64,000 nt of DNA from an uncultured archaeon (GCA_964608675.1 CAZSOZ010000004.1:46376-110375); one strand, 5' to 3'. Positions 1 through 12,555 are shown, counted from the stretch's first letter. Notes: generated by a model not told the origin, from the letters alone. Program-made: numbers and translations.

Positions 1-55
1 TGAATTCAATTCTGTTTTTTGTGTTAAAGTAAAGGTATTCTGTATGAGATTTCAT
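1..55 (-). CDS. yjbQ: YjbQ-family (secondary thiamine-phosphate synthase-like) protein, 5' end only; runs off the window
   Basis: Minus strand reads MKSHTEYLYFNTKNRIEF..., near-identical to the truncated copy at 976-1119, which extends to the YjbQ motif [12 protein letters not shown]. Confidence 0.7.
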   Translation of the reverse strand, partial: MKSHTEYLYFNTKNRIEF

Positions 56-127
56 AATAAGTTTTTTGTTTACAAACTCTTTTATTTTTTTTTGGTGTAA
101 CTGTTGTCTTTAAACAGGTTTTTTGGA

Positions 128-331
128 TTAAGCGATTGCAGTTTGTCTGGGTAGCATTGCTTTTAGCATATCTATTGTAGTTTTGCTTGCATTTAATATT
201 TCTATTTCAACCGGCTTGTTTTCTTTGGTGTAGTGTGTAATTATATCTCCTTCTTGTTCTGCAAAATCAGGTTTTTCAGATCTAAGCTCTATTACCATTA
301 TATCTGTTTGCTTATCATATTTATATTTCAT
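128..331 (-). CDS. DUF2283-family small protein (putative antitoxin)
   Basis: MKYKYDKQTDIMVI...PVEIEILNAS matches the YDxxxD...xIEIL pattern; overlaps the upstream DUF4258-like gene. Confidence 0.8.
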   Translation of the reverse strand: MKYKYDKQTDIMVIELRSEKPDFAEQEGDIITHYTKENKPVEIEILNASKTTIDMLKAMLPRQTAIA

Positions 332-557
332 ATCTTTCCCTCTTTGATTTATAAGTGGTTATGACTGTTAGGGAGTTAATGGTTTTTTCATATATAACTC
401 TTATCACATAGCCGTTTAAAGGCTTTTGTGCAATTTTTCTGTTGTAATTTCCTTCAATAACTATTTTGGGGGAATTCACGCAATCAGTTACCTGTTTTTC
501 ACTCAAACAGTATTTTTTCATTCTCTCTTTTGCGTGACTTGAAATTTCTATTTTCAT
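321..557 (-). CDS. DUF4258-family protein (putative RelE-like toxin)
   Basis: SSHAKERM N-terminus and IRVIYE...VITTY C-terminus; typical pairing with DUF2283. Confidence 0.75.
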   Translation of the reverse strand: MKIEISSHAKERMKKYCLSEKQVTDCVNSPKIVIEGNYNRKIAQKPLNGYVIRVIYEKTINSLTVITTYKSKRERYEI

Positions 558-661
558 TTAACAAATAAAGAAAAGAAAATAATAAATTAGAATGCTTTAA
601 TTTGCATTGGCTCGCAAAAAAACCTAAAACTTAAAATAAGGTTTTATGCTTACTATAAGCT

Positions 662-956
662 ATGACTGGAGAAAAAGAAATTCTTCTTAGCAGAAAAATT
701 CATTTTGTCCCTTTGGCTATTCTTTTTTTATTTTTTTTTGATTGTTTTTTATTTTTTTGATGTTGGTGGGGCAAGTCCCTTCAAAGAAAAATCAATTTAT
801 TTTAGGTATCTTGCTATCGTGCTCTATGCTTTAGGAATGGTTGTTTTAATCGAGGTTGGTACCAGAATCATGGTTTACGTTTATGGCGGGTCAATGAAAC
901 CAGAAGACTCAAGAAAAAAACTTTACAGTGACTTAAAGAATAAACACAAAAAATAG
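662..956 (+). CDS. Small two-TM membrane protein, apparently frameshifted in a T9 tract at 731-739
   Basis: ATG at 662 gives MTGEKEILLSRKIHFVPLAILFLFF; removing one T joins it to the 705-956 ORF (LIVFYFFDVGG...). Confidence 0.5.
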
Positions 957-988
957 CATATTACTTATACGTAATCTAAGTAATATGC
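956..988. repeat. Perfect inverted repeat, 12-bp arms with 9-bp spacer
   Basis: GCATATTACTTA (956-967), tacgtaatc, TAAGTAATATGC (977-988). Confidence 0.85.
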
Positions 989-1119
989 ATTGGATTAACT
1001 AAAACTAGTCCTTCTTTTATTTTGCTTTTAGAAACAACTTCTTCAACTTCTTTTGTAATGTTAACAAATTCTATTCTGTTTTTTGTTTTAATTTCAAGGT
1101 ATTCAGTGAAAGATTTCAT
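976..1119 (-). pseudogene. yjbQ: Truncated yjbQ 5' fragment (47 aa)
   Basis: [47 protein letters not shown] then TAG; about one third of a normal YjbQ. Confidence 0.85.
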
Positions 1120-1194
1120 AAAAATTTTTTTGTTTCAACATGTTTTTAATGAATTCCCTTTAATTTATTTTTACTGTATTTAAGGTGTTTTTTT

Positions 1195-2055
1195 TTGATT
1201 GCAAAAAACAATAAAGCAAAATTGTGTTCTTCATGCAAAGAACTTAATCTTCACTGTGGGACAATTGTTTTTTGCACTGACAGAAGAGTTAATGCTGAAG
1301 CTGTTTCTAATGCTTTAAAAAAACAGGGTTTTCCTGAAGAACTGGTTTTTTGCGTTAAAAGCTCTTATGGTCATGAAAGTGCAGGGAACAAAATTCATGA
1401 AAGCGATCCTTTAATTGCACAGGCGTTAAAATTGGGAATTGGCCCAGGGCATTTCGGAAAAATTGTTTCTGTTTTTGGGCACAGCAGTAAATGTGGGGGA
1501 ATGAATGCACAGCATGAACTGCATAAACTTGAATTTTTAATTGAAAAAGAAAAATTAAATAAAAACAAAAAAAAAGCAAAAGAATTAAAAGAAAAATTAA
1601 ATGAATTAAAAAAAGATGCAATTTCAGGATGGGTTGCATTAGATTTAAATGAATTTAAGTCTTTGGTTTCAGAACTTAAAAAAAAGTTTTTAGAAAAAGA
1701 ATTTGAAGAATTCTTGTTTTCTGATGACTTCAGAATTCTTTTAGAAGAATTTAATGTTTTTGTTCAATTAAAAAAATTAATTAACCGCAAAGATTTTCAG
1801 GAATATTATTTTAATGCTTTTAAGGATGGAAGAGGGAAAATTAAATTGATTGCAGGAATTTATTCTCCTAAAGAAAAAATTTGCAGGGGCGCTTACTGTA
1901 CTTCAACAGGAAAAGTAAACTTTGATTTTCCTTTTATTTATTCTGTGTTTGGAGAAAAAAAAGTAAAAGAAATACTTTCTTTTTTTAATTTATTTCATTT
2001 AAAAGGAAAACCTGAAATAGAATACAAAATAAGTTATGGGAAGGAAGGGATTTGA
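1195..2055 (+). CDS. Divergent beta-carbonic anhydrase-like protein
   Basis: CTDRR (CxDxR) and GHSSKCGG (H..C) zinc-ligand motifs, EFNVFVQL helix; Lys/Glu-rich insertion. Confidence 0.6.
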   Translation: MIAKNNKAKLCSSCKELNLHCGTIVFCTDRRVNAEAVSNALKKQGFPEELVFCVKSSYGHESAGNKIHESDPLIAQALKLGIGPGHFGKIVSVFGHSSKCGGMNAQHELHKLEFLIEKEKLNKNKKKAKELKEKLNELKKDAISGWVALDLNEFKSLVSELKKKFLEKEFEEFLFSDDFRILLEEFNVFVQLKKLINRKDFQEYYFNAFKDGRGKIKLIAGIYSPKEKICRGAYCTSTGKVNFDFPFIYSVFGEKKVKEILSFFNLFHLKGKPEIEYKISYGKEGI

Positions 2056-2110
2056 ACCCTTGACCTCCCGGTTATCAGCCGGGTGCTCCACCAAACTAAG
2101 CTACCCTCCC
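2037..2110 (-). tRNA. tRNA-Ile(GAT)
   Basis: GGGAGGG/CTTCCC acceptor stem, anticodon arm CCCGG-CTGATAA-CCGGG, TTCAAAT T-loop. Confidence 0.95.
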
Positions 2111-2113
2111 AAA

Positions 2114-2167
2114 CAAACTTTTTAGAAAAAAGTTTGATCAAAAAAAACCTTTTTAGAAAAAAGGTTT
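2114..2167. repeat. Two tandem REP-like palindromes
   Basis: CAAACTTTTT-AGA-AAAAAGTTTG (2114-2136) and AAACCTTTTT-AGA-AAAAAGGTTT (2145-2167). Confidence 0.8.
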
Positions 2168-2237
2168 GCTAAAAATGAAGTTTATGCTAAGCAGTAATAA
2201 AAAGTACTTCAAGTAAAACAATTTAAACTTAATGAAA

Positions 2238-2310
2238 TAGCCCCGAGGAGATTCGAACTCCTGTCAACGGGTCCAAAGCCCGCCATCCTTGGCCACTAGA
2301 CTACGGGGCT
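2238..2310 (-). tRNA. tRNA-Gln(TTG)
   Basis: AGCCCCG/CGGGGCT acceptor stem (A1-U72, typical of archaeal tRNA-Gln), anticodon arm GCGGG-CTTTGGA-CCCGT. Confidence 0.95.
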
Positions 2311-2545
2311 AAAAATGGGCTATTAATGTAATTAAAACAGAAATAGACTATAAAAAAGTGTGGGAAAAAACTATTAAATATTAATAAGCCGGCAAAAACA
2401 AAACAAAAAAAGAAGATAAATCTGAAAAAGCTAAAGGAGCTTTGTGTAAATAGTGCTTGAAATTGCTTACTTTTTACACAGAGTGAACACTTTTTACACA
2501 GGTTAAATTTATTAATTTCAAAAGTTAATAATTTAGTTGATTAAA

Positions 2546-2788
2546 ATGGCTGACTTTTGGGAAACTATTTTTTATATTGCTTTAGGAGTTTTTATTTTGT
2601 GGGCTTTGTTAAAAAGTTTTGGTATAATACAAAGTCCTGCATGGCTTGAAGTTGGCGTTCCAGCAGTTTCTGGCGGAGTAGCTATTGGAAGTTTTTATCA
2701 AAAGTTTAGGCAATTAGAAAAAACTGTAGAAGAAATAGGAAAGAAAACTAATGAAGTCTATGAAAAATGTCCTGCAGTTAAGCACTAA
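2546..2788 (+). CDS. Small membrane protein (two hydrophobic segments plus short coiled coil), transposon cargo
   Basis: ORF track 2537-2788; ATG at 2546 (MADFWETIFY); converges on the transposase 3' end. Confidence 0.65.
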   Translation: MADFWETIFYIALGVFILWALLKSFGIIQSPAWLEVGVPAVSGGVAIGSFYQKFRQLEKTVEEIGKKTNEVYEKCPAVKH

Positions 2789-3971
2789 AATTTATTTCTA
2801 TTCCTAATTCATTTGTTTCATGAATTACAACAACTATGTTATGACATAAGACTTTCAATAACAACTCGTTTTTTTGTGCTGTGTGTGTTTTTGATTTCAG
2901 GCAGTCGTTAAATTTTGATTTTATCATAAAAAATGTTGTTTCTATGTTGCTTCTTTTGTGATAGTGTTGCATGAATTCTTCTTGGTTGAATTTGAAGTAG
3001 TGATACATTTTTCTTCAAATGTGGTTTTTTCCTTTTGGAATTCCTCTTGCACTTTTTTTGAATGGAATGTAAGCTGTTCCGCCAAAGTCATCAATTAAAG
3101 CAAGGTTATCTCTTGAACTGTAAGCCATGTCTGCTGAAAACTCTTGAATATCAAAACCATTTTGTTTTGTTTGTGTGGCTAATGGAATTAAGTTAGGGCT
3201 ATCTCCTGTGCCTGTTCCATGACTTTTTGATACTTCACAGCTTGTTATTATGTTTGTTTTTGCTCCGCAGACTGCATGAAGTTTAAGCCATTCATGTCGT
3301 CTTTTTGTATTGTGTTTTTCTTTACAGTATTCATTAAATTTTGTTGTTCTGAATCCAGTTGAATCAATGCAAAATTTTTCTTCACAAGTTTTCAAAACAA
3401 TTCCTGACTTTGAAATTAATTGCTTTAAAGTTTTGGTTATTTGTTTCTTTTGCGTGAAGTGTCCGATTGAAGCAAAACAAGGGACTTTTTGAATTAATCC
3501 TTTTTCTTTTGCAAACTTTAAATCTGACATGAATCTTCTTAAAGAAAATTGAGAATAAACTTTTAGTGCTGAAGCAAACATTAAATCTTTTTCTGAAATT
3601 TTAGGTCTGCCAAAACTATAATCTGCTTCTTCAATGTTTTCTAATAAATCTTTTAGTAATTCCATGAATCTTTCTTTTTCTGTTTCTTGGCTTTTATTGT
3701 AAGCACTCCAAGTTTGAGGATAAGTTAATCTTTTTGTTTCAATTTTGCTTACTCCGTTTTTGATTGTAATTTTTTGTAAATAGTATTGAACTGCAAAAGC
3801 GTGTTTACAAGTGCAATCACTATTCTTATGGTCAGGACAACTACAAGAATAATCCTTTCTAACAAAATAATTTTTATTTCCTGATTGGCTTGGAACTATC
3901 CAGCCATCAACTCCGCTTTGAATTGTTTTAGTTTTTGCAATTTCAAAACCTTTCTTTTTTCTTAAATCCAT
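2778..3971 (-). pseudogene. SWIM zinc finger + DDE transposase interrupted by an in-frame TGA at 3015-3017
   Basis: CSCPD..CKH SWIM motif, IDSTGF, ADMAY and YHKRSNIETTFFMIK (Y-2-R-3-E-6-K); ORFs 3015-3980 and 2778-3008 are in frame (NHI*RKMYHYF). Confidence 0.9.
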
Positions 3972-4080
3972 TTTACTCAACCTCTCACATACTTATTAAG
4001 TACATACTTTATAAGTGTATACTATTAAAAACCTTTCGGTTCAATAAAGTATATAAATGGGAAATAACTTGTATAGTCCA

Positions 4081-4257
4081 ATGGCAGTATTCAAGAAAAA
4101 AATAACAGTAACTATGTTACGTTGTGAAAGATGTGGTTATGAGTGGCAACAGAGAGGTAAAAAACTCCCTGAAGTGTGTGCTAATCTAAAATGCAAAAGC
4201 AGATATTGGAATAGACCAAGACAACAACGAAAAACAAAGAAAGATGGTAAAAAATGA
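4081..4257 (+). CDS. Small zinc-ribbon protein, divergent from the transposase
   Basis: CERCGYEW...CANLKCKSRYWN; ATGA overlap with the methyltransferase; start may be 4057. Confidence 0.75.
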   Translation: MAVFKKKITVTMLRCERCGYEWQQRGKKLPEVCANLKCKSRYWNRPRQQRKTKKDGKK

Positions 4258-5567
4258 GCGTCACAGATAATTCAAGAAGAAGTTTAGGAGTTCATTTAAC
4301 TTCAGTAAACACATTTAAAAAATACGTTTTTCCAAAAATTAAAAACAAAATAAATGACTTTATTTGGGTTGACTTATTTGCAGGAGAAGGCAACCTTATT
4401 TTACCTATTCTTGAAAGTATTTCAAAAGACAAAAGAATTCAATTTTTTAAGGAAAACATTTTCTTGTTTGATATTCAAAAAGAAATGGTTAAAAAATCTG
4501 TTGAAAATGCAATAAAATATGGGATACCTAAAGAGATTGCAGAAAAAAACATAATTCAGCAAGATACCTTAAAAAATTTTCCAAAATTTTTACATGAACT
4601 AAATAAACCAATTTTCCATATAACTAACCCCCCTTATCTATATTTAGGGTATATAGGAAAACACAAAGAAATGAATATTCACTTAAGTTATTTTGAAGGA
4701 TATAATAAAGGATATCAAGACTTATATCAAATTGCCTTAATAAATGACTTAAGAAATAATCTACAAAAAATGATTTACATTATTCCATCAAATTTTTTAT
4801 TTGGGGCAGTAATTTCAAACAAAATAAGAGATGACTTTTTACCACAATACAAAATAAATGAAGCAGTAATTTTTGAAAAAAAAATATTTGAATTTACTGG
4901 CACAAATGTAATGATTTGTTTTTTTGAAAAAACTGAAAAATTAAATAGGATAATTGAATTTAATGCAACAAAAATTAACAGCCACGAAATAACAAGGCAC
5001 TATATTTTAACTAAAAAAAACAAATTTAGGGGCGGAAACTATTTTGAAGAATATGTAAAAACAAGAAAAGCAGTTAACCCCCTTGAAGTTAAATATTATT
5101 TAAAACAAGAAGAATTAGAAAAAAACAAAGGAAATAATAAAGTCATTCTTTTAGATTCAAAAAATTATACAGGGAAGAGTTACTCGCAAAAAGAATTTTT
5201 TGTAAACAATAAGTTATTTAATAAAATTAAATCAAATCCTTTGTTTATAAGGACAGTTGATACTGGTTCAGAAGAAGGCAGAGCTGGTTTATACAACATA
5301 AAAAAAACTTTTGAAGTTGACGGAATTTTTGTTAGTGGTGCAACTTACAGAACAAACCCAATACAACTTTTCATTACTCCAACTTTAAAAAACAATGATT
5401 CTGAAAAATTAAAAGAACAATTTAATCAAACTCTTGAAAATTTAAGAGATAAAACTGACAGTGAATTTATGACTACTTACAAATATACTAATGGAACAGG
5501 AAAGTATATTAGAAAGTATTTAGGGTTAAGTCAAGCAAAAAAGCTTTTACAAACAATAATTTTGTAA
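4254..5567 (+). CDS. N6-adenine DNA methyltransferase (gamma-type motif order)
   Basis: Motif I DLFAGEG followed by motif IV TNPPY; long C-terminal target-recognition region; adjacent to an endonuclease gene. Confidence 0.9.
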   Translation: MSVTDNSRRSLGVHLTSVNTFKKYVFPKIKNKINDFIWVDLFAGEGNLILPILESISKDKRIQFFKENIFLFDIQKEMVKKSVENAIKYGIPKEIAEKNIIQQDTLKNFPKFLHELNKPIFHITNPPYLYLGYIGKHKEMNIHLSYFEGYNKGYQDLYQIALINDLRNNLQKMIYIIPSNFLFGAVISNKIRDDFLPQYKINEAVIFEKKIFEFTGTNVMICFFEKTEKLNRIIEFNATKINSHEITRHYILTKKNKFRGGNYFEEYVKTRKAVNPLEVKYYLKQEELEKNKGNNKVILLDSKNYTGKSYSQKEFFVNNKLFNKIKSNPLFIRTVDTGSEEGRAGLYNIKKTFEVDGIFVSGATYRTNPIQLFITPTLKNNDSEKLKEQFNQTLENLRDKTDSEFMTTYKYTNGTGKYIRKYLGLSQAKKLLQTIIL

Positions 5568-5573
5568 ACAAAA

Positions 5574-6367
5574 TTATCTTTCATTTTCTTTTATAAAATC
5601 AGGTAGTAAAAGAGCACTTAAAGCATTTCCTGTTGAATTACAAAGACGTTTATAATATCTGCCACTTTCTTTAAACCAAACTACTCCATCAACTATAGCT
5701 ATTCTTATAACATTTCCTGATTTTTCTTCAGAAAATTTAACTATATTAAAATATTGATTATCTTGTCCGCCACCACCAGCAGAAATAAATTTTGCTCCAC
5801 CAACTATAAACTTTCCATTTTTTAGTTTGGCAATAAAATCTACATCTCCTTTTTCTTCAAGTTTACATTTTAATTCCTTTTCAGCAAACCATTGCATTTG
5901 TTTATCTGAGGCATTAAGAAAGACTGTTGAATTAGAAACTTTAAAGTCATTTAAAGAAACAGAAGGATATCCTATAGTTTTAACCCATGCCTTAAAAGCG
6001 TTTCCTAATCGTTTACTTGCACTTTTTGGTTCATTACATCTGTCTACAACTTCTCGCCAACTTAATTTTATATCCTTTTTGCTATGCGTTGTGTGGTTTG
6101 TGGATTGTTTTCTATTATCTTTTCATTAAGCTTTAAAGAGCCCATATATGAATCTTTAATAGGTGCTGCTTCTTTTCTGGAAAGAATTGAAATGCTTTTC
6201 ACTAATTCTTCCATATTTTTTTCTTCATACGCTTTTTTTATTTTATTCATTAATTCCTCAGAAATATCTCTCTTTTCTTCTGTTTGTGCAGGATAAACAG
6301 AATGGAGTTTATCTAAATATCCTTTAGAATTAGCAAAATTAATGCTTTTTTCAACCCAATTATTCAT
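5574..6367 (-). pseudogene. Tsp45I-like type II restriction endonuclease, frameshifted near 6066-6070
   Basis: MNNWVEKSINFANSKGYLDKL..PIKDSY..NPQTTQRIA continues in another frame as KLSWREVVDRCNEPK...VDFIAK..GGAKF..GGGQDNQ; resembles the Tsp45I family from memory. Confidence 0.8.
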
Positions 6368-6429
6368 ATTAACCAATAAAATATGCTATTACCTTTATTT
6401 AAGTTTTGGGATTTAATAATATTGGTAGT

Positions 6430-6648
6430 ATGGGCGGTTCATTAAATTACGAAAGAAGTTATGAAAAACTTCAGAAAGCAAGAAGCTTATCGGAAGAAGA
6501 AAAAAAAATAATTATGGCACGAAAAAGAGGGTTTCCTAATTGTAAGGGATTATATCCTGATTGCCCTGAAGTTCCTGATAAAAATTGTAGTCAATGTAAG
6601 ACCTGCCCTGTTTTAGACGAAACATATGAAAGAAGTTATAAAGTTTAA
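6430..6648 (+). CDS. Small Cys-rich hypothetical protein, transposon cargo
   Basis: ATG at 6430; CKGLYPDC...CSQCKTCP. Confidence 0.6.
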   Translation: MGGSLNYERSYEKLQKARSLSEEEKKIIMARKRGFPNCKGLYPDCPEVPDKNCSQCKTCPVLDETYERSYKV

Positions 6649-6752
6649 GGACTTTTTACACGGTTTTTTTACTTTTTACACAAAAACGACTTTTCACACA
6701 AAGCTAGCTAAAGGCAAACCATTAAATAGTTCTTTTTGTTTTATTTTTTTTT

Positions 6753-7322
6753 ATGTTAATAAAATTTTTTTTGCCTGCAATTTTGTTTTTATTTTTGTTT
6801 TCTTTTGGGTGTTTTGATTTAATTAAAGAAAGCCCTGGAGAAAAAGCAGTTAAATTGGCTGATCAACTGCCTGAAATTGATGTTACTGAAAGGCTGATTA
6901 AAAGTTTTGAGAACTCAGATGAATGTACTTTGAATGTTTATATTGAAAATTATTCTAGTTTACTGCAGGTTCAGGGAATGGGTTATTTTGAGCCAACACA
7001 GGAACAAAGAAAAGAAATGGGGTTGGCTTTAAATAAAACAAAAGATTGGGTTAATCAATGTAATCCAAGGCTTTCCAGACAACTGGAAATGCAGTCAGAA
7101 AACAGTTATGTTGTTTATTATGAAATGGAAACAAACAAAGATGCGGTTTGTGATGTTTCTTCTGAAAAAGTGAAAGTTTTTGTTGATTTACGAGAAGAAA
7201 AAGCGATAATTGAAGAAGGTTCAGTTTCTCAAAATAGTATTGAAGTGCTTGAAGAAGTATTGCATTATATGGGACCTTGTGCAGGATTAATGTTTTTTTC
7301 ATTGACTGTTATTGAAGAATGA
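6753..7322 (+). CDS. Hypothetical lipoprotein
   Basis: Hydrophobic N-terminus ending SFGC; acidic Cys-containing body. Confidence 0.7.
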   Translation: MLIKFFLPAILFLFLFSFGCFDLIKESPGEKAVKLADQLPEIDVTERLIKSFENSDECTLNVYIENYSSLLQVQGMGYFEPTQEQRKEMGLALNKTKDWVNQCNPRLSRQLEMQSENSYVVYYEMETNKDAVCDVSSEKVKVFVDLREEKAIIEEGSVSQNSIEVLEEVLHYMGPCAGLMFFSLTVIEE

Positions 7323-7398
7323 TTTTTTTTTAAAATAGTTTTTTAAAGCTTTTCAACTATTATCTTTTTTTTCTAGAATTGAATCGGGGGTAATTAAA

Positions 7399-8556
7399 TT
7401 GTCTGGTGTAGATCCAGTTATATCTGAAGTAATGTTAAAACTAATTATAATTTTGTTTTCAGCAAAACTTGCAGGATACATTTTTGATCGAATAAAACAA
7501 CCCAGAGTTTTAGGTGAACTTCTTGTTGGAGTGTTGCTTGGACCAAGCTTGTTTGGTTATATTACTGGTCATGAAGAAATCCTGATGTTTTTGTCTGAAG
7601 TCGGAGTAATTATTTTATTGTTTTTGGTTGGATTGGAATCCAATATCCATGAATTACTAAAAAGCGGAAAAAATGCTTTAATGGTTGCAGTAATTGGAGT
7701 GCTTGCTCCTGTATTATTGTCTTTGCCTTATCTGCTTTATATTGAAGTATTGGATTTTAATGCAGCTTTGTTTATTGCAGCAACTCTTACAGCAACAAGT
7801 GTCGGAGTAACCATGAGAGTTTTAAGCGAAATGAAAAAAATTACTTCGCTTGAAGGAAAAATTATTTTGGGGGCAGCAGTAATTGATGATGTTTTAGGAT
7901 TAATTATTTTGTCTGTTTTGGCAGGAATCGCTGAAACAGGAGGAGTTGAAATACTGAATGTAATTCAGACTATTGTTGTTTCTGCTTTATTCCTTGCAGT
8001 AACTATTGTAATTGGAATCAAGTTAGAAGAACCTATTTTGAAGATGATAAGATATTTGAAGGTCAGAAGAACTTTTATTGTTTCAGCAGTAATTTTTGCT
8101 TTGGCTTTGGGGTATCTTGCTCAAATGATTGGATTGGCTGCAATTGTTGGAGCATTTGCTGCAGGCTTAATTCTTGAAAGAGAAGAACACAAAGAAAACA
8201 TCATGAAAAAAACTGAAGTAATTGGAGACGTGTTTACTCCGATTTTTTTTGTGATGGCTGGAGTTGCAGTTAATGTTTCAACAATTAATATGGATTTGCT
8301 TCCATTAGGAATAATTTTATTGATTATTGCTTTGGTTGGAAAAATTGTTGCAGGCTTTGGTGTATTTGGAACTCCTGCTTCAAAGATGGCTGTTGGAGTT
8401 GGAATGGTTCCAAGAGGAGAAGTCGGATTAATTTTTGCTACATTTGGGTTAGCGCATTCTTTTATCGGAGATGGAATGTATTCAATTCTTGTTGTAGTAA
8501 TAATGCTGACTACTTTGTTTACTCCGCCTGTCCTCAAAAAATTAATGGATAAATAA
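7399..8556 (+). CDS. CPA2-family cation:proton antiporter (NapA/Kef-type)
   Basis: PRVLGELLVG, ATSVG, GAAVIDD, GMVPRGEV motifs; highly hydrophobic. Confidence 0.92.
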   Translation: MSGVDPVISEVMLKLIIILFSAKLAGYIFDRIKQPRVLGELLVGVLLGPSLFGYITGHEEILMFLSEVGVIILLFLVGLESNIHELLKSGKNALMVAVIGVLAPVLLSLPYLLYIEVLDFNAALFIAATLTATSVGVTMRVLSEMKKITSLEGKIILGAAVIDDVLGLIILSVLAGIAETGGVEILNVIQTIVVSALFLAVTIVIGIKLEEPILKMIRYLKVRRTFIVSAVIFALALGYLAQMIGLAAIVGAFAAGLILEREEHKENIMKKTEVIGDVFTPIFFVMAGVAVNVSTINMDLLPLGIILLIIALVGKIVAGFGVFGTPASKMAVGVGMVPRGEVGLIFATFGLAHSFIGDGMYSILVVVIMLTTLFTPPVLKKLMDK

Positions 8557-8582
8557 AAGAGAGATTCACTTCTCTTTTTTTT
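8555..8582. terminator. Bidirectional hairpin/T-tract terminator
   Basis: AAAAGAGAG-attcac-TTCTCTTTT plus T run, between convergent genes. Confidence 0.55.
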
Positions 8583-9607
8583 TATTTTTTTAAAAGAATA
8601 ATTAATGCAGTTAATAAAACTGCAATAACTGCGGTTAAATTTATTTCAGGCATTTCAGTTAGGTTTCCTATTACTGCAGGCCCTAATTCTATTATTTCAT
8701 AGCCGGAATTGTTTGCTTTGTTTTGTTCTGGAATCTGGTTTATAGGAATATAATATGCTTCTCCGTCATCCCAGTATGCGCTGTCTGGATCCATAGGGTC
8801 AACAAAGTATTCGGGAGAAGATTCAACGTAGTTGCTTACTGTCAGAAATTCTATTTTATAGTTTTGTCTTTCTTCAAAATCATAATTTGCAAGATTAATG
8901 TTTAAATCGTATTCTTCGTAGCCGGGAGCAGAAAACTCTAAATAAAAAGGGGATGGCCCGTAAACTGCTTGTCCTGTTCTTGGATCGCTGATTATTATGA
9001 ATGCTTTTGCTTGAATTGCTTGATTTAAATAATAATTTATTTTTGCTTGAACTCTTATTTTTCCGTTCACTGAATACCTGTTTGAGGGCTCTATTTTTGT
9101 TATCTGAAAATTCGAAACAGATAATACATCTGTTGTAATTGGTTTAATTGTTATTACAACTGAATCCTGCTTTATTTGTTCTGTTGAATCAGTTATTTTT
9201 AATGTAATGTTGTGGTCTCCAATACTTAAACCTGAATATGTATGATTTTCATCTGAAGAATACCATCCTGTGTCTTTGTTTGAATCCCATTTAATAATGC
9301 AGGGAGTATTTGTGCATGTTAAATGAGACATGAATTCAATTTCTGTTCCAATATAAAACTGGTTTCCATCTGAAGGATTTAAAATTTCTGCTGAAAGTGC
9401 TTCTGCAGGGCATCCGTCACCGGAAATATCTTCACATGCCCCCCATTTGCTTGAAACACATCTTTGTATTCCAGAACATCCTTCTGAAGTAGTGCATATT
9501 CTGATTCTTCCGTCAATACATCTGTCGTCAGGCACAAAATCAGCATTTATTAAAACAAGTAAAGAAACAAAAATAAATGCAGTCAAAAAATTTTTTTTGT
9601 TCATCAT
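8582..9607 (-). CDS. Surface protein with Cys-rich N-terminus, PKD/Ig-like domain and PEF-CTERM-like anchor
   Basis: Signal peptide; WDSNKD..LSIGDHNITLKITDS; ends MPEINLTAVIAVLLTALIILLKK. Confidence 0.7.
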   Translation of the reverse strand: MMNKKNFLTAFIFVSLLVLINADFVPDDRCIDGRIRICTTSEGCSGIQRCVSSKWGACEDISGDGCPAEALSAEILNPSDGNQFYIGTEIEFMSHLTCTNTPCIIKWDSNKDTGWYSSDENHTYSGLSIGDHNITLKITDSTEQIKQDSVVITIKPITTDVLSVSNFQITKIEPSNRYSVNGKIRVQAKINYYLNQAIQAKAFIIISDPRTGQAVYGPSPFYLEFSAPGYEEYDLNINLANYDFEERQNYKIEFLTVSNYVESSPEYFVDPMDPDSAYWDDGEAYYIPINQIPEQNKANNSGYEIIELGPAVIGNLTEMPEINLTAVIAVLLTALIILLKK

Positions 9608-9693
9608 TAGTATTATTGTGTTTCTGATATTTATTTGTTGTTTAAATAAGAATGCTTTAAATTGTTTTTTGTTCTTTTTTTTAGTTGATTGTT

Positions 9694-9876
9694 ATGGGTT
9701 TAACTGATATTTTTAAGAAAAAAGAAAAAGAAGAAGAAAAACCTGTTCCTGAAGGAAAATATCATGAAGTGTGTGCTTTGTGTGGTGGAACAGGAACAGA
9801 AAAAAAGTGGGCAGGACAGTACTGGCATAAAAAATGCATGAGAAAAGCAAGAAAAGGAGCTAAAGGAATGATGTAA
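9694..9876 (+). CDS. Small zinc-finger-like protein
   Basis: CALC...HKKC. Confidence 0.7.
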   Translation: MGLTDIFKKKEKEEEKPVPEGKYHEVCALCGGTGTEKKWAGQYWHKKCMRKARKGAKGMM

Positions 9877-9877
9877 G

Positions 9878-10924
9878 TCATTCAAAAAAAGGTTTTTCTA
9901 ATTTCATTTTTTGGCCTTTGATTGTTTTTCCTAAAATAACTGCATTCAATTCAAATTGTTTTTTTAGTTCGCTGACTATTTTTTCTGAATCTTTTTGTGA
10001 AACAACTAAAACCATTCCAATTCCCATGTTAAAGGTTTTGAACATTTCTTGTTCTGAAATGTTTCCGTTTTCTTTCAGCCATTTAAAAATAAATGGTACT
10101 TGAATTTTGTTTTGATTTATTTTGGCTGTAATTCCTGTAGGAAAAATTCTTGGAAGGTTGTCTATTAAGCCTCCTCCTGTAATATGTGCTATTCCTTTTA
10201 ATTCAAATTTTTTCATTAAAAATAAAACTTCTTTTAAATAGCTTTTATGGACTTTTAATAGTTCTCCTCCGATAGTTAAATCTTGTTTTTCTACTACAAA
10301 TTGTTCTTTTAGGCTTATTTTTGTTTTTTCAAGAACTTTTCTTGCAAGAGAATAACCGTTTGTATGGAGTCCTGTGGATGGAAGTCCTATTAATGCATTG
10401 TTTTCTTTTATTTTTTTTCCTGTAATTAATTCTTTTTTTTCTGTTATTCCTATTATTGTTCCTGCTATATCAATTTCTTTTTCGGCGTAAGTTCCGGGCA
10501 TTTCTGCTGTTTCTCCTGCAATTAATGCAATTGAATTTTCTTTGCATGCTTCTGCCATTCCTTTAACTATTTCTTCTATTATTTTTGGTTCAATTTTGTC
10601 TGAGGCAATATAATCAAGAAATGCAATTGGTTTTCCTCCGTGGCATAATATGTCGTTAACAGAATGGTTAACTAAATCTTTTCCGATTGAATCCCATTTT
10701 TTCATTTGTTTTGCAATAATTGTTTTTGTTCCTATTCCGTCAATGCTTGATAAAAGTATTGGTTCCTTGAATTTTTTTATTTCTTTTAAGTTTATTGCTC
10801 CGCAGAATAAACCTGAATCAAGCAAAACGTTTTCATTAAAAGTTGATTTAACGTGTTTTTTTATTCTTTGAACTGCTTCGTTTCCTTTTTCTATGTTTAC
10901 TCCTGCTTCAGAATAAGAAACCAT
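9878..10924 (-). CDS. purM: Phosphoribosylformylglycinamidine cyclo-ligase
   Basis: YSEAGVNI, DGIGTK, GETAEMP, GLHTNGYSLARK, HITGGG, TFNMGIG. Confidence 0.96.
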   Translation of the reverse strand: MVSYSEAGVNIEKGNEAVQRIKKHVKSTFNENVLLDSGLFCGAINLKEIKKFKEPILLSSIDGIGTKTIIAKQMKKWDSIGKDLVNHSVNDILCHGGKPIAFLDYIASDKIEPKIIEEIVKGMAEACKENSIALIAGETAEMPGTYAEKEIDIAGTIIGITEKKELITGKKIKENNALIGLPSTGLHTNGYSLARKVLEKTKISLKEQFVVEKQDLTIGGELLKVHKSYLKEVLFLMKKFELKGIAHITGGGLIDNLPRIFPTGITAKINQNKIQVPFIFKWLKENGNISEQEMFKTFNMGIGMVLVVSQKDSEKIVSELKKQFELNAVILGKTIKGQKMKLEKPFFE

Positions 10925-10934
10925 TTTTTTTTCC

Positions 10935-11606
10935 TCACAAAATTTTTGTCCCTGTTTTTGTTCCTGCAATTACAGTGCAGTCTCTTGTAAACAATCCGTT
11001 TTCTTTTATGCCTTTTATTAAATTAAGGTTTTTTTCGAGTTCTTTTGCATTTGTTATTGGAGAATGCATTTGCATGGAAATAACGTAATTGTTGTTTTCT
11101 GTTTCAACTGGCATGCATTTGTTTGAAACCTGAACTATTTCTGCATCAAATTTTTTGTTTAATTTAGTTAGAATTTCAATTGTTTCTGCAGGCTCTACTT
11201 CAAGGAGTATTTCTTCTGTTAATTCTTTGTTTAATTTGCTTTCATCTATTATTACTATAAATTTTTTTGCTTTGTAATCTATTTGTTTTTCTTTCAGGAA
11301 AGCATATCCTCCCATTCCTTTAAGCAGTTCTTTTTTTTGGTTTACTTGGTCTGCTCCGTCTACTGCTATATCAATTTTTTGAATGGAATTTTGGCTTACA
11401 ACTTTTAAATCTGAGTCTATTGCAAGTCGCATTGTTTTGTTTGAAGTAGCAATACAAATTAAATCTAGTTTTTCTTTTTTGTTTTTTTCTGCTAGTTTTT
11501 TTACGAATATTTCTGCAGTTGAACCGCTTCCTAGTCCAACTGTCATTCCTTTTTTTATGTATTTTAATGCTTCTTTTGCCGCGTTTTCTTTTTGTTTTTC
11601 ATTCAT
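10935..11606 (-). CDS. rpiA: Ribose-5-phosphate isomerase A
   Basis: GLGSGST, DGADQV, KGMGG. Confidence 0.95.
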   Translation of the reverse strand: MNEKQKENAAKEALKYIKKGMTVGLGSGSTAEIFVKKLAEKNKKEKLDLICIATSNKTMRLAIDSDLKVVSQNSIQKIDIAVDGADQVNQKKELLKGMGGYAFLKEKQIDYKAKKFIVIIDESKLNKELTEEILLEVEPAETIEILTKLNKKFDAEIVQVSNKCMPVETENNNYVISMQMHSPITNAKELEKNLNLIKGIKENGLFTRDCTVIAGTKTGTKIL

Positions 11607-11643
11607 TTTTTTCTCACAAAACATTAATTGAAAAGAAAAGATT

Positions 11644-12555
11644 TTAATTTGGTTTGAATGCCATCAATCCTGCTCCAATTATTCCTGCTTTTTCTTTGAA
11701 TTTTGCTTTAATTATTTTTGTATTTGAAGCTCTTTTGAATGCTCTTTTTTTTACTTCTTTTTTTGCCTGCTGAATTAAAATATTTGAATTGCTTAGTCCT
11801 CCGCCTAAAACAATTGCTTCAGGGTTAAAACAGTTTATTATGTTGGTTAAGCCTATTCCAAGAAATGTTCCTGTTTCTTTTAAAATGGAAATAGCTATTT
11901 TGTCTCCTTTTTTTGCTGCTTCATCTACTTTTTTTGGAGTCAACGGCCACATTTTTTTTAGTTTTGATTCAAATAATTCTGTTTTTATTTCAGTTAACTG
12001 CATTAAAGGTTTTATTCCAATGTATTGTTCTAGGCATCCATTGTTTCCGCAGGAACATTTTGGGCCGTTAAAATTTATTGTCATGTGGCCTATTTCTGTT
12101 AAATTGTTTTTTCCTGAATAAATTTTTTTGTTTATTATTATTCCTGAACCCACGCCGGTTCCTGCAGTTAACCCTATTATTATATTGAATTTTTTTGCGT
12201 TTCCAATTAATGCTTCAGCGTAAGCCATTAGAACTGCATCATTCTGCAGAAAAATTTTTTTTCTTGTTTTATTTTTTAATGCTTTAATTAAATTGGTTTT
12301 GTTCATGCAGGCAATGTTAGGGCTCTGTATTATAATTCCTTTTTTTGGGTCAACGTCTCCTGCAAACCCTATTCCTATTGCTTTTATTTCTTTTGAATCA
12401 AGTTTTTTGATTACTTTAATCAGGTTTTCAATTAATTTTTTTTTGCCGTAATGAGAGTTTGTTTCAATAGTAATTTGCTTTAAGATTTTTCCTTTTTTTG
12501 TGATTATTCCTGCTTTAATTTCTGTTCCTCCTATGTCTATTCCTATTGTTTTCAT
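11644..12555 (-). CDS. ROK-family sugar kinase (glucokinase-like)
   Basis: GIDIGGT, NDA, GTGVGSG, EIGH, CSCGNNGCLE. Confidence 0.93.
   Translation of the reverse strand: MKTIGIDIGGTEIKAGIITKKGKILKQITIETNSHYGKKKLIENLIKVIKKLDSKEIKAIGIGFAGDVDPKKGIIIQSPNIACMNKTNLIKALKNKTRKKIFLQNDAVLMAYAEALIGNAKKFNIIIGLTAGTGVGSGIIINKKIYSGKNNLTEIGHMTINFNGPKCSCGNNGCLEQYIGIKPLMQLTEIKTELFESKLKKMWPLTPKKVDEAAKKGDKIAISILKETGTFLGIGLTNIINCFNPEAIVLGGGLSNSNILIQQAKKEVKKRAFKRASNTKIIKAKFKEKAGIIGAGLMAFKPN

Follow-up and report, generated by a model that had tools for sequence, protein, structure and literature searches.

What kind of genetic unit arises when a single transposase gene and a set of restriction-modification (R-M) genes lie between one pair of inverted repeats? 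The question is raised by a 64,000-nucleotide (nt) stretch of DNA from an uncultured archaeon (GCA_964608675.1, CAZSOZ010000004.1:46376-110375), hereafter the window, in which a preliminary description made from the sequence alone had marked positions 2429 to 6714 as a unit transposon with defence cargo. We are confident, though short of certain, of the following answer: the block is a 4,268-bp non-composite unit transposon with a single transposase distantly related to that of the insertion sequence (IS) IS903 and with R-M genes as cargo, and the copy in the window has since decayed.

Boundaries of the element

A 9-bp target-site duplication (TSD), AGCTAAAGG, is exact at both ends of the element, which occupies 2438-6705 (4,268 bp). 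Directly inside it lie 17-bp terminal inverted repeats (TIRs): AGCTTTGTGTAAATAGT at 2438-2454 and the reverse complement of 6689-6705 (AGCTTTGTGTGAAAAGT) agree in 15 of their 17 letters. Both the repeats and the gene content had been given in the preliminary description; the former were re-read in the sequence, and the latter agrees with our open reading frame (ORF) calls and Pfam matches. The features of the element are listed below (aa, amino acids).

2429-2437, no strand: left copy of the TSD, AGCTAAAGG (sequence reading and detector output)
2438-2454, plus strand: TIR of the transposase-proximal end, the canonical 'right' end of the family, AGCTTTGTGTAAATAGT
2469-2500, minus strand: two subterminal 12-nt end sites, 2469-2480 and 2489-2500, inverted relative to the terminal copy
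2537-2788, plus strand: small hydrophobic ORF (83 aa), lying between the element's end and the 3' end of the transposase gene
2778-3980, minus strand: transposase with SWIM-type N-terminus and DDE_Tnp_1 domain, a pseudogene by one in-frame stop
4057-4257, plus strand: 66-aa Zn-ribbon protein, divergent from the transposase gene (alignment A3)
4254-5567, plus strand: 437-aa N6-adenine-type DNA methyltransferase, intact, cargo (N6_Mtase, E 2.2e-6; NPPY)
5574-6376, minus strand: Tsp45I-family type II endonuclease, broken by a 1-nt deletion, cargo (Pfam Tsp45I in both pieces)
6406-6648, plus strand: 80-aa Cys-rich small protein, cargo, accompanying the R-M cassette
6651-6682, minus strand: two subterminal 12-nt end sites, 6651-6662 and 6671-6682, oriented as the terminal copy
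6689-6705, minus strand: TIR of the cargo-side end, the canonical 'left' end of the family, AGCTTTGTGTGAAAAGT
6706-6714, no strand: right copy of the TSD, AGCTAAAGG (sequence reading)

Our detector reported 17-nt inverted pairs with an exact 9-bp direct repeat immediately outside them. With at least 13/17 matches, the 2438/6705 pair was its sole result in window positions 1-12000. Over the 1.2-Mb assembly it found five pairs at 15/17 or better, compared with 0, 1 and 0 in three Markov-simulated genomes; the repeat statistic is weak by itself, the genome being AT-rich. The pair in the window stands above chance because of its context, that is, transposase genes of one family and the same tip and TSD at their homologues. 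Three listed pairs at 14/17 or better enclose a transposase gene of this family, namely the window element, C1:332748-338166 and C6:22892-27623. The window element is single-copy in the assembly, and no element ends (allowing up to two mismatches), solo ends or miniature derivatives were found elsewhere in the window's genome.

The insertion lies about 120 bp from a tRNA-Gln gene. Its flanking genes (tRNA genes, a 189-aa ORF and an antiporter) are present in five genomes of the same genus. The preliminary description had raised the case of relatives that keep the cargo here and lack the transposase; neither the transposase nor any of the cargo proteins is encoded at the five syntenic loci. In G004, homology starts at 6715, the first base past the right TSD, and G003 behaves alike.

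A family of cargo-carrying elements

Scanning one genome per species, we confirmed 294 loci by tblastn and extracted flanks of 10 kb on either side; the 78 loci described here come from the best 80 of these. An element was called where an RGCTTTG-type TIR (at least 12/17) and an exact 9-bp duplication span the transposase gene. This rule delimits an element at 45 of the 78 loci, in unrelated hosts; two of these elements (L032 and L053) are apparently the same DNA as L025 and L027. Pairs that lack the tip motif number 23 over all loci, 21 of them at the 12/17 floor. Element sizes range from 1,802 to 13,394 bp with a median of 4,518 bp. Ends drawn tightly around the transposase gene, an arrangement that the preliminary description had also considered, are not the pattern, since the elements enclose 1.8-13.4 kb and just one of the 45 is under 2.6 kb.

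Cargo was surveyed by comparing the 213 non-transposase ORFs of at least 60 aa from the 45 elements with Pfam. DNA methyltransferase domains occur in 21 elements, comprising 20 of 30 archaeal and 1 of 15 bacterial ones (assigned by record titles). The partner nucleases include MamI, BglI, Mrr_cat, GmrSD/HNH, Vsr and HSDR_N-fused type IIG enzymes with S subunits. Among the remaining cargo are ThsB-TIR; SocA/Panacea; an arsenic-type set of ArsR, LMWPc and SBF; an AAA_14/DUF4143 ATPase; NYN with HxlR; DUF4365; DUF5131; and AEP-TOTE. For example, L025 is a 4,742-bp element with a perfect 17-nt TIR, the TSD ACTACAAAA and NYN, HxlR and AbrB-like genes, while L027 measures 3,575 bp, has the TSD TAGTAAGTT and carries a C5-methyltransferase gene and a 230-aa ORF. 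L024, an element cut by a contig end, has the window's exact 17-nt TIR together with a Zn-ribbon gene, Dcm, Vsr and a 280-aa ORF.

With TIR/TSD pairs at 45 of 78 loci and methyltransferase genes in 21 of those 45, the type proposed in the preliminary description, a non-composite, single-transposase transposon with defence cargo, is borne out. Its assignment to DPANN-like archaea proved too narrow: the family is present there, and its hosts also include methanogens and four bacterial phyla (Acidobacteriota, Planctomycetota, Pseudomonadota and Verrucomicrobiota). As foreseen, source databases name the homologues only 'transposase'. Among 8,000 candidates scored, 6,683 proteins reach E<=0.001; a library of 50%-identity clusters yields 4,927, 2,565 and 777 clusters at E<=1e-3, 1e-10 and 1e-30, respectively. 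The family is absent from the plasmid collection that we searched, as the best transposase match there is 26% identical (an ISRhba5-type IS5 member) and none of 22 records covers 80% of the query.

The window's genome holds two further elements around paralogous transposases of 40% identity. The first (L258, G000:C1:332748-338166) measures 5,419 bp, with a TIR of 16/17, three cargo ORFs of 327-382 aa without a Pfam match, and a transposase in which a Zn-ribbon takes the place of the SWIM-type N-terminus. The other (L259, G000:C6:22892-27623) measures 4,732 bp, with a TIR of 14/17, a broken transposase and Vsr, Dcm and HTH_17 cargo.

Two elements elsewhere differ in composition. L046 (6493-19886, 13.4 kb) contains a second DDE_Tnp_1 gene and three separate R-M-type modules, namely an Eco57I-like IIG enzyme; Vsr, Dcm and HATPase_c_3; and an N4/N6 methyltransferase with a BglI-like endonuclease. 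It probably represents two elements, nested or fused. L078 (8883-13987, Pirellulales) carries ArsR, an ArsC-like low-molecular-weight phosphatase and an SBF/ACR3-type transporter, a cargo that looks like arsenic resistance rather than defence.

Relationships of the transposase

The window transposase matches Pfam DDE_Tnp_1 (PF01609) at E 1.9e-20, and residues D201, D276, E339 and K346 are invariant in the aligned family transposases. The Y-2-R-3-E-6-K signature reads HYHKRSNIETTFFMIK in the window protein; its columns are conserved in the family and its spacing is identical in the IS903-type protein of L115. This 1,057-bp element served as the IS903-type control: its 322-aa ORF scores 352.8 bits to the NCBIfam model NF033579 ('IS5 family'), and the IS903 inverted repeat occurs as inverted pairs lying 1,057 bp apart in many viral-contig loci. 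The best model for the window protein is likewise NF033579, with 121.1 bits (relatives, 110.5-121.4), and hhalign aligns the family with the IS903-type transposase at a probability of 97.4% (E 1.5e-11, 23% identity, 261 columns). The tip is GGCTTTG in L115, whose copy has no duplication, and AGCTTTG in the window. IS903 itself produces a 9-bp TSD. On account of the GGCTTTG tip, the 9-bp duplication, the Y-2-R-3-E-6-K spacing and the model and profile matches, the family is, as judged by these sequence features, a distant relative of the IS903 group within the IS5 family. Placement with IS4, as the preliminary description had it, was tried and dropped: the score with NF033592, 22.5 bits, falls short of that model's cut-off of 115 and lies far below the IS5_2 hit.

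Compared with IS903, the family proteins have an N-terminal extension of about 85 residues with a CxCx9CxH pattern. In 70 sequences C43, C55 and H57 of this zinc motif are invariant and C45 is nearly so; in the window protein it reads CSCPDHKNSDCTCKH (CxCxnCxH). The SWIM profile PF04434 is precomputed on some transposase homologues. An AlphaFold2 model of the transposase reached a predicted local distance difference test (pLDDT) score of 88 and a predicted template modelling (pTM) score of 0.76, and Foldseek matches this predicted fold to generic DDE transposases (ISCth4, E 2.3e-4; Tn5 with the best TM, TMq 0.45). To our knowledge, no structure of an IS5-family transposase has been solved.

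Ends with several sites

A 12-nt site, the inner part of the TIR, recurs at fixed positions near both ends. With the transposase gene on the plus strand, the canonical positions are +6, +24 and +44 (direct) at the cargo-side end, and -63 and -43 (same orientation) and -17 (inverted) at the transposase side, giving a layout of ->->-> at one end and ->-><- at the other. At least four terminal copies are present in 36 of 48 elements, and the density of the site is 13.75 per kb in the terminal 150 bp versus 0.16 per kb inside. By position, 47 elements yield counts of 26 (+24), 25 (+44), 32 (-17), 23 (-43) and 16 (-63). The window element fits this layout exactly, with sites at 6689, 6671 and 6651 at one end and at 2443, 2469 and 2489 at the other, whereas the IS903-type control has two terminal copies only. 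We also considered that the TIR-bounded units could be two nested or adjacent elements with internal ends beside the transposase gene, which the 0.16 internal sites per kb disfavours. A logo of 47 duplications gave no target consensus.

Mobility of the unit and reassortment of cassettes

Two loci on one Acidobacteriaceae contig, L048 and L049, lie about 197 kb apart and are 99.76% identical over 3,815 bp. Their homology stops within 2 bp of the TIR tips, and both the flanks and the duplications differ between the copies. Because these copies are near-identical and have separate duplications, they show that the whole unit moves, a conclusion drawn for a family member and not for the copy in the window.

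A scan with the window methyltransferase confirmed 209 loci, of which 80 were kept. A Tsp45I-like endonuclease gene adjoins the methyltransferase gene in 16 of the 80, and a transposase of the family is present in a single one, L260; loci with both R-M genes and no transposase therefore place the R-M pair outside transposons as well. L260 is a 5,113-bp element with the TSD GTTTTCACA and TIRs unlike those of the window (AGCTTTGCTCTTAAAT...). Its transposase is intact (405 aa) and 67% identical to the window's at the nucleotide level, while its cassette has 88.7% nucleotide identity over window positions 4210-6661. This shared stretch runs from the last 48 nt of the Zn-ribbon gene into the first subterminal repeat, and one window-type 12-nt repeat is kept in L260 directly after the Cys-rich gene. 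Such a junction suggests that the cassette was exchanged between two transposons by recombination near the end repeats.

A quick maximum-likelihood tree, with support from the Shimodaira-Hasegawa-like approximate likelihood-ratio test (SH-aLRT) only and used solely to show the differing cargo of neighbours, places the window transposase in a clade of seven. The other six members carry a Dcm R-M system, an AAA_14 ATPase, NYN, Dcm/Vsr, a type IIG enzyme and the Tsp45I cassette of L260. Backbones and cassettes thus appear to reassort, with the window's backbone found with other cargo and the window's cassette found in another backbone.

Cargo and small genes

The window methyltransferase is 90% identical to the L260 protein. 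An intact adjacent Tsp45I-type R-M pair is absent from the window, where the endonuclease is frameshifted, but is present in L260. No homologue of the window's cargo genes occurs in the other transposase loci of the 78-locus set, and the methyltransferase has no match in the plasmid collection.

A profile of the Zn-ribbon protein built from A3 (CxRCxHxW...PxxCPxCKSPYW) matches 23 of the 78 loci, of which 19 have the gene in divergent orientation no more than 400 bp upstream of the transposase gene. In other elements this place is taken by AbrB/MazE-like or winged-helix genes. The Zn-ribbon gene is present in L024, which has the same backbone and other cargo, and absent from L260, which has another backbone and the same cargo. 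The Cys-rich protein, without a Pfam match, adjoins the endonuclease gene in both L260 (85% identical) and L289 (48% identical). From the comparison with L260, and from the position of the Cys-rich gene beside the endonuclease gene in L289 too, we assign the Zn-ribbon gene to the transposon backbone and the Cys-rich gene to the cassette. The 83-aa ORF has no Pfam match and no homologue in the other transposase loci.

Decay of the window copy

Two lesions, which the preliminary description does not mention, affect the element. On the minus strand, the transposase gene has an in-frame TGA at 3015-3017 where relatives have TGG for Trp (4 of 4 aligned homologues), and this Trp column is invariant in 70 sequences (W314 of alignment A4). 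Of 497 long open frames in this genome, 158 terminate at TGA, an ordinary stop codon here. The endonuclease frame changes near 6070, with pieces matching Pfam Tsp45I positions 1-95 and 156-258; relative to the intact 267-aa endonuclease of L260, one base is missing at about 6069/6070.

Read evidence consists of Logan contigs from three runs of one study at 3-5x depth. Contigs of run X2 span both junctions and both lesions without differences: one covering 2828-3398 has 0 differences and the same TGA, another, at 5628-6387, agrees without differences or gaps, and none of the contigs shows a variant at the TGA. The X2 study is possibly the window's own source, so that this agreement is not independent.

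Only the methyltransferase and the small genes are still open in the window element. We consider this copy a decaying relic, presumably immobile and non-restricting, in which an orphan methyltransferase is left. Mobilisation in trans by the two paralogues in the genome is unlikely, because the ends of the paralogues' elements differ from those of the window element.

Weighing the explanations

Several observations weigh against the reading of the element as a decayed, IS903-related cargo transposon, or against the breadth of its family. The preliminary description had proposed looking for an empty site in related genomes or reads, and this expectation was disappointed: no exact one was found in the five same-genus genomes, where the left intergenic flank is too diverged and no search was made with a pattern joining the two flanks, and no joint across the element appears in the contigs of the three runs at 3-5x depth. 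The 78 loci, being the best-scoring ones, are biased to close relatives of the query alignment, and 33 of them lack an exact TIR/TSD pair, many being cut by contig ends. At least one of these, L049, has a 10-bp duplication, which the 9-bp rule missed. The family falls below the cut-off of NF033579 (121 vs 140 bits). Finally, the N-termini of the window protein and of L025 give no Pfam SWIM (PF04434) match at E<=0.001, while L027, with 19.4 bits, falls below the cut-off of 19.6.

Of the competing explanations, the one with most to recommend it, while still unlikely, holds that the R-M cassette is itself mobile and was inserted into, or recombined with, a pre-existing compact IS. The same cassette stands at 88.7% nucleotide identity in two backbones, with a window-type 12-nt repeat kept in L260; methyltransferase homologues lack the family transposase at 79 of 80 metagenome loci, 15 of these 79 having a Tsp45I-like endonuclease; and R-M units with inverted repeats and 8-bp duplications are already on record in the portion of an earlier report available to us (PMC2853133). 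A compact form of the element is nevertheless not dominant, with 1 of 45 under 2.6 kb, and cargo other than R-M genes (NYN/HxlR, the arsenic-resistance set, ThsB-TIR, the AAA_14 ATPase) is just as neatly enclosed. The cassette in the window has no recombinase or repeats of its own, and the repeat kept in L260 fits recombination of two transposons at their end repeats at least as well.

Far less credible is an element that remains active, with the TGA at 3015-3017 read through or recoded so as to lower transposase levels. The stop is in frame, 76 open codons downstream of it hold the catalytic E and K, and the X2 contig, possibly from the window's own source, has the same TGA; yet relatives read TGG, Trp is invariant in the 70 sequences, the genome commonly uses TGA as a stop (158 of 497 long frames), a stop at this site is seen in none of the other family members examined, and the broken endonuclease of the same element is consistent with general decay. 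We attach almost no weight to the notion that the repeats are a product of chance in AT-rich DNA and that the block is a genomic island, for example one integrated by a recombinase beside tRNA-Gln. The tip, the TSD length and the triple-site layout recur at homologous transposases in unrelated hosts (45 of 78 loci), the element contains no integrase gene, the duplicated 9-mer lies outside the tRNA gene, and L048 and L049 provide a two-copy case with element-exact homology; on its side are the weak statistic (five pairs at 15/17 or better with an exact 9-bp flank in 1.2 Mb), the tRNA gene about 120 bp away and the variability of the region among same-genus genomes. The decayed unit transposon is thus the reading that we retain.

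Surroundings of the insertion

The region beside the insertion is rearranged within the genus. The tRNA-Gln gene is uninterrupted at window 2237-2311, and in two pieces about 48 bp apart (possibly an intron) at G001:C31:24600-24727 and G004:C120:1871-1995; its orientation relative to tRNA-Ile is opposite in G001, G004, G003 and G005. Between the tRNA-Ile and tRNA-Gln genes, about 65 nt (window 2112-2185) show 82-100% identity to many scattered contigs, with matches in the same-genus and same-family genomes G001, G002, G003, G004, G005, G006, G008 and G021. This stretch has no tRNA call and no Rfam match at E<=0.1, and could be either a short dispersed repeat or a small RNA not yet recognised. 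In L021 (G003:C5, about 2190-2360), some 170 bp of G+C-rich sequence with internal GTGCTATCTGCGATAGCAC-like repeats directly follows tRNA-Gln in an AT-rich genome, and may be a structured RNA or a mobile-element remnant. Additionally, window 128-557 contains two overlapping small ORFs of 67 and 78 aa on the minus strand that look like a toxin-antitoxin-type pair; the DNA at 142-545 matches several related genomes at 69-81% identity.

Proposed mechanism

The architecture suggests how such an element could work. A single transposase with an RNase-H-fold DDE domain would recognise the 12-nt site, of which each end has three copies, arranged asymmetrically. By analogy with DDE chemistry and with IS903, the ends would be paired and cleaved at the RGCTTTG tips, and then joined to target DNA in which a staggered cut of 9 bp has been made; in the window this would have placed the element near tRNA-Gln and duplicated 9 bp of target. 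Judging from position and conservation, candidate binders of the 12-nt sites or of the divergent promoter are the SWIM module, a small partner protein or both, and the two ends may be told apart by their asymmetric layout. For the Zn-ribbon protein, the most likely role is to regulate the shared promoter region or to assist at the ends. Everything between the ends, including the methyltransferase, endonuclease and Cys-rich genes, would be carried along. Host defence and post-segregational killing are established behaviours of R-M systems, and by analogy a Tsp45I-type cassette would protect the host and stabilise the element through post-segregational killing.

Significance

R-M and defence genes are known to be mobile, and their vehicles are poorly defined, especially in archaea; the family described here is a concrete, bounded vehicle. 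Its precise ends can be located by a rule, each having an RGCTTTG tip and three 12-nt sites and the pair being flanked by a 9-bp duplication. In annotation, genes called 'transposase' flag 3-7 kb units readable as mobile cargo. Cargo-carrying IS-like transposons are thereby extended to the IS5/IS903 lineage, and the window copy exemplifies decay toward an orphan methyltransferase. Several points are directly testable, namely the action of a one-protein DDE transposase on asymmetric ends, the roles of the SWIM and Zn-ribbon modules, and the stabilisation of a transposon by an R-M system.

A wider proposal seems to us evenly balanced between true and false: that an unnamed, domain-spanning lineage of unit transposons derived from IS903, marked by a SWIM-type N-terminus, an asymmetric 3+3 arrangement of end sites and often a dedicated Zn-ribbon partner, is a main vehicle by which R-M and other defence cassettes spread in DPANN archaea and methanogens, transports different cargo in soil bacteria, and has its cassettes swapped between backbones by end-repeat recombination. 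If this is true, intact members could be the first natural transposon vectors for DPANN-type archaea.

Comparison with known systems

The literature that we searched, with ISfinder, TnCentral and supplements lying outside the search, contained no IS903-related cargo transposons and no elements combining SWIM with DDE_Tnp_1, and there is a real chance that curators already hold members of the family unnamed or under different names. In the part of a 2026 survey of archaeal IS available to us, the words 'SWIM' and 'passenger' do not occur.

The family resembles IS903 in its DDE_Tnp_1 domain with Y-2-R-3-E-6-K, its GGCTTTG tip and its 9-bp TSD. IS903, 1,057 bp long, has one gene and a single 18-bp repeat at each end, whereas the family adds an N-terminal stretch of about 85 residues that contains a SWIM-type zinc motif, has three 12-nt sites at either end, often a divergent Zn-ribbon or AbrB-type gene, and 1.5-12 kb of cargo, at 23% transposase identity. 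Likewise, the window element differs from a compact IS of about 1 kb in its 4,268 bp, its five further ORFs and its three sites per end.

The zinc module (CxCxnCxH) on a DDE transposase recalls the MULE/Mutator (Mutator-like element) group. MULE transposases belong to an IS256-like lineage and have SWIM C-terminal to the catalytic core, whereas the core of this family is IS5/IS903-like and the zinc motif is N-terminal. Analogous to Tn7-like transposons, which also have several transposase-binding sites per end, arranged differently at the two ends, the family carries defence-rich cargo. Tn7-like elements need TnsA, B and C together with a targeting protein. They are much larger, multi-protein systems, whereas this family has one unrelated DDE transposase and a 9-bp TSD and shows nothing that points to a dedicated attachment site. 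The richness of Tn7-like cargo in defence systems is described in the portion of PMC8649781 accessible to us.

In the transporter IS (tIS) of ISfinder and TnCentral, as in this family, one transposase and one inverted-repeat pair enclose passenger genes. The section of the 2021 TnCentral preprint available to us restricts tIS to the IS1595 and IS66 families; the present elements would be an IS5/IS903-related case in which cargo is the rule and not the exception. A parallel in cargo is the work of Furuta, Abe and Kobayashi (2010; PMC2853133), whose accessible text describes R-M genes lying within inverted and short direct repeats and read as mobile, with 8-bp duplications, among the systems that remained once linked mobile genes had been taken out. 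Compared with the units in that text, those described here have their transposase, family and end architecture identified, and the unit is seen in two copies.

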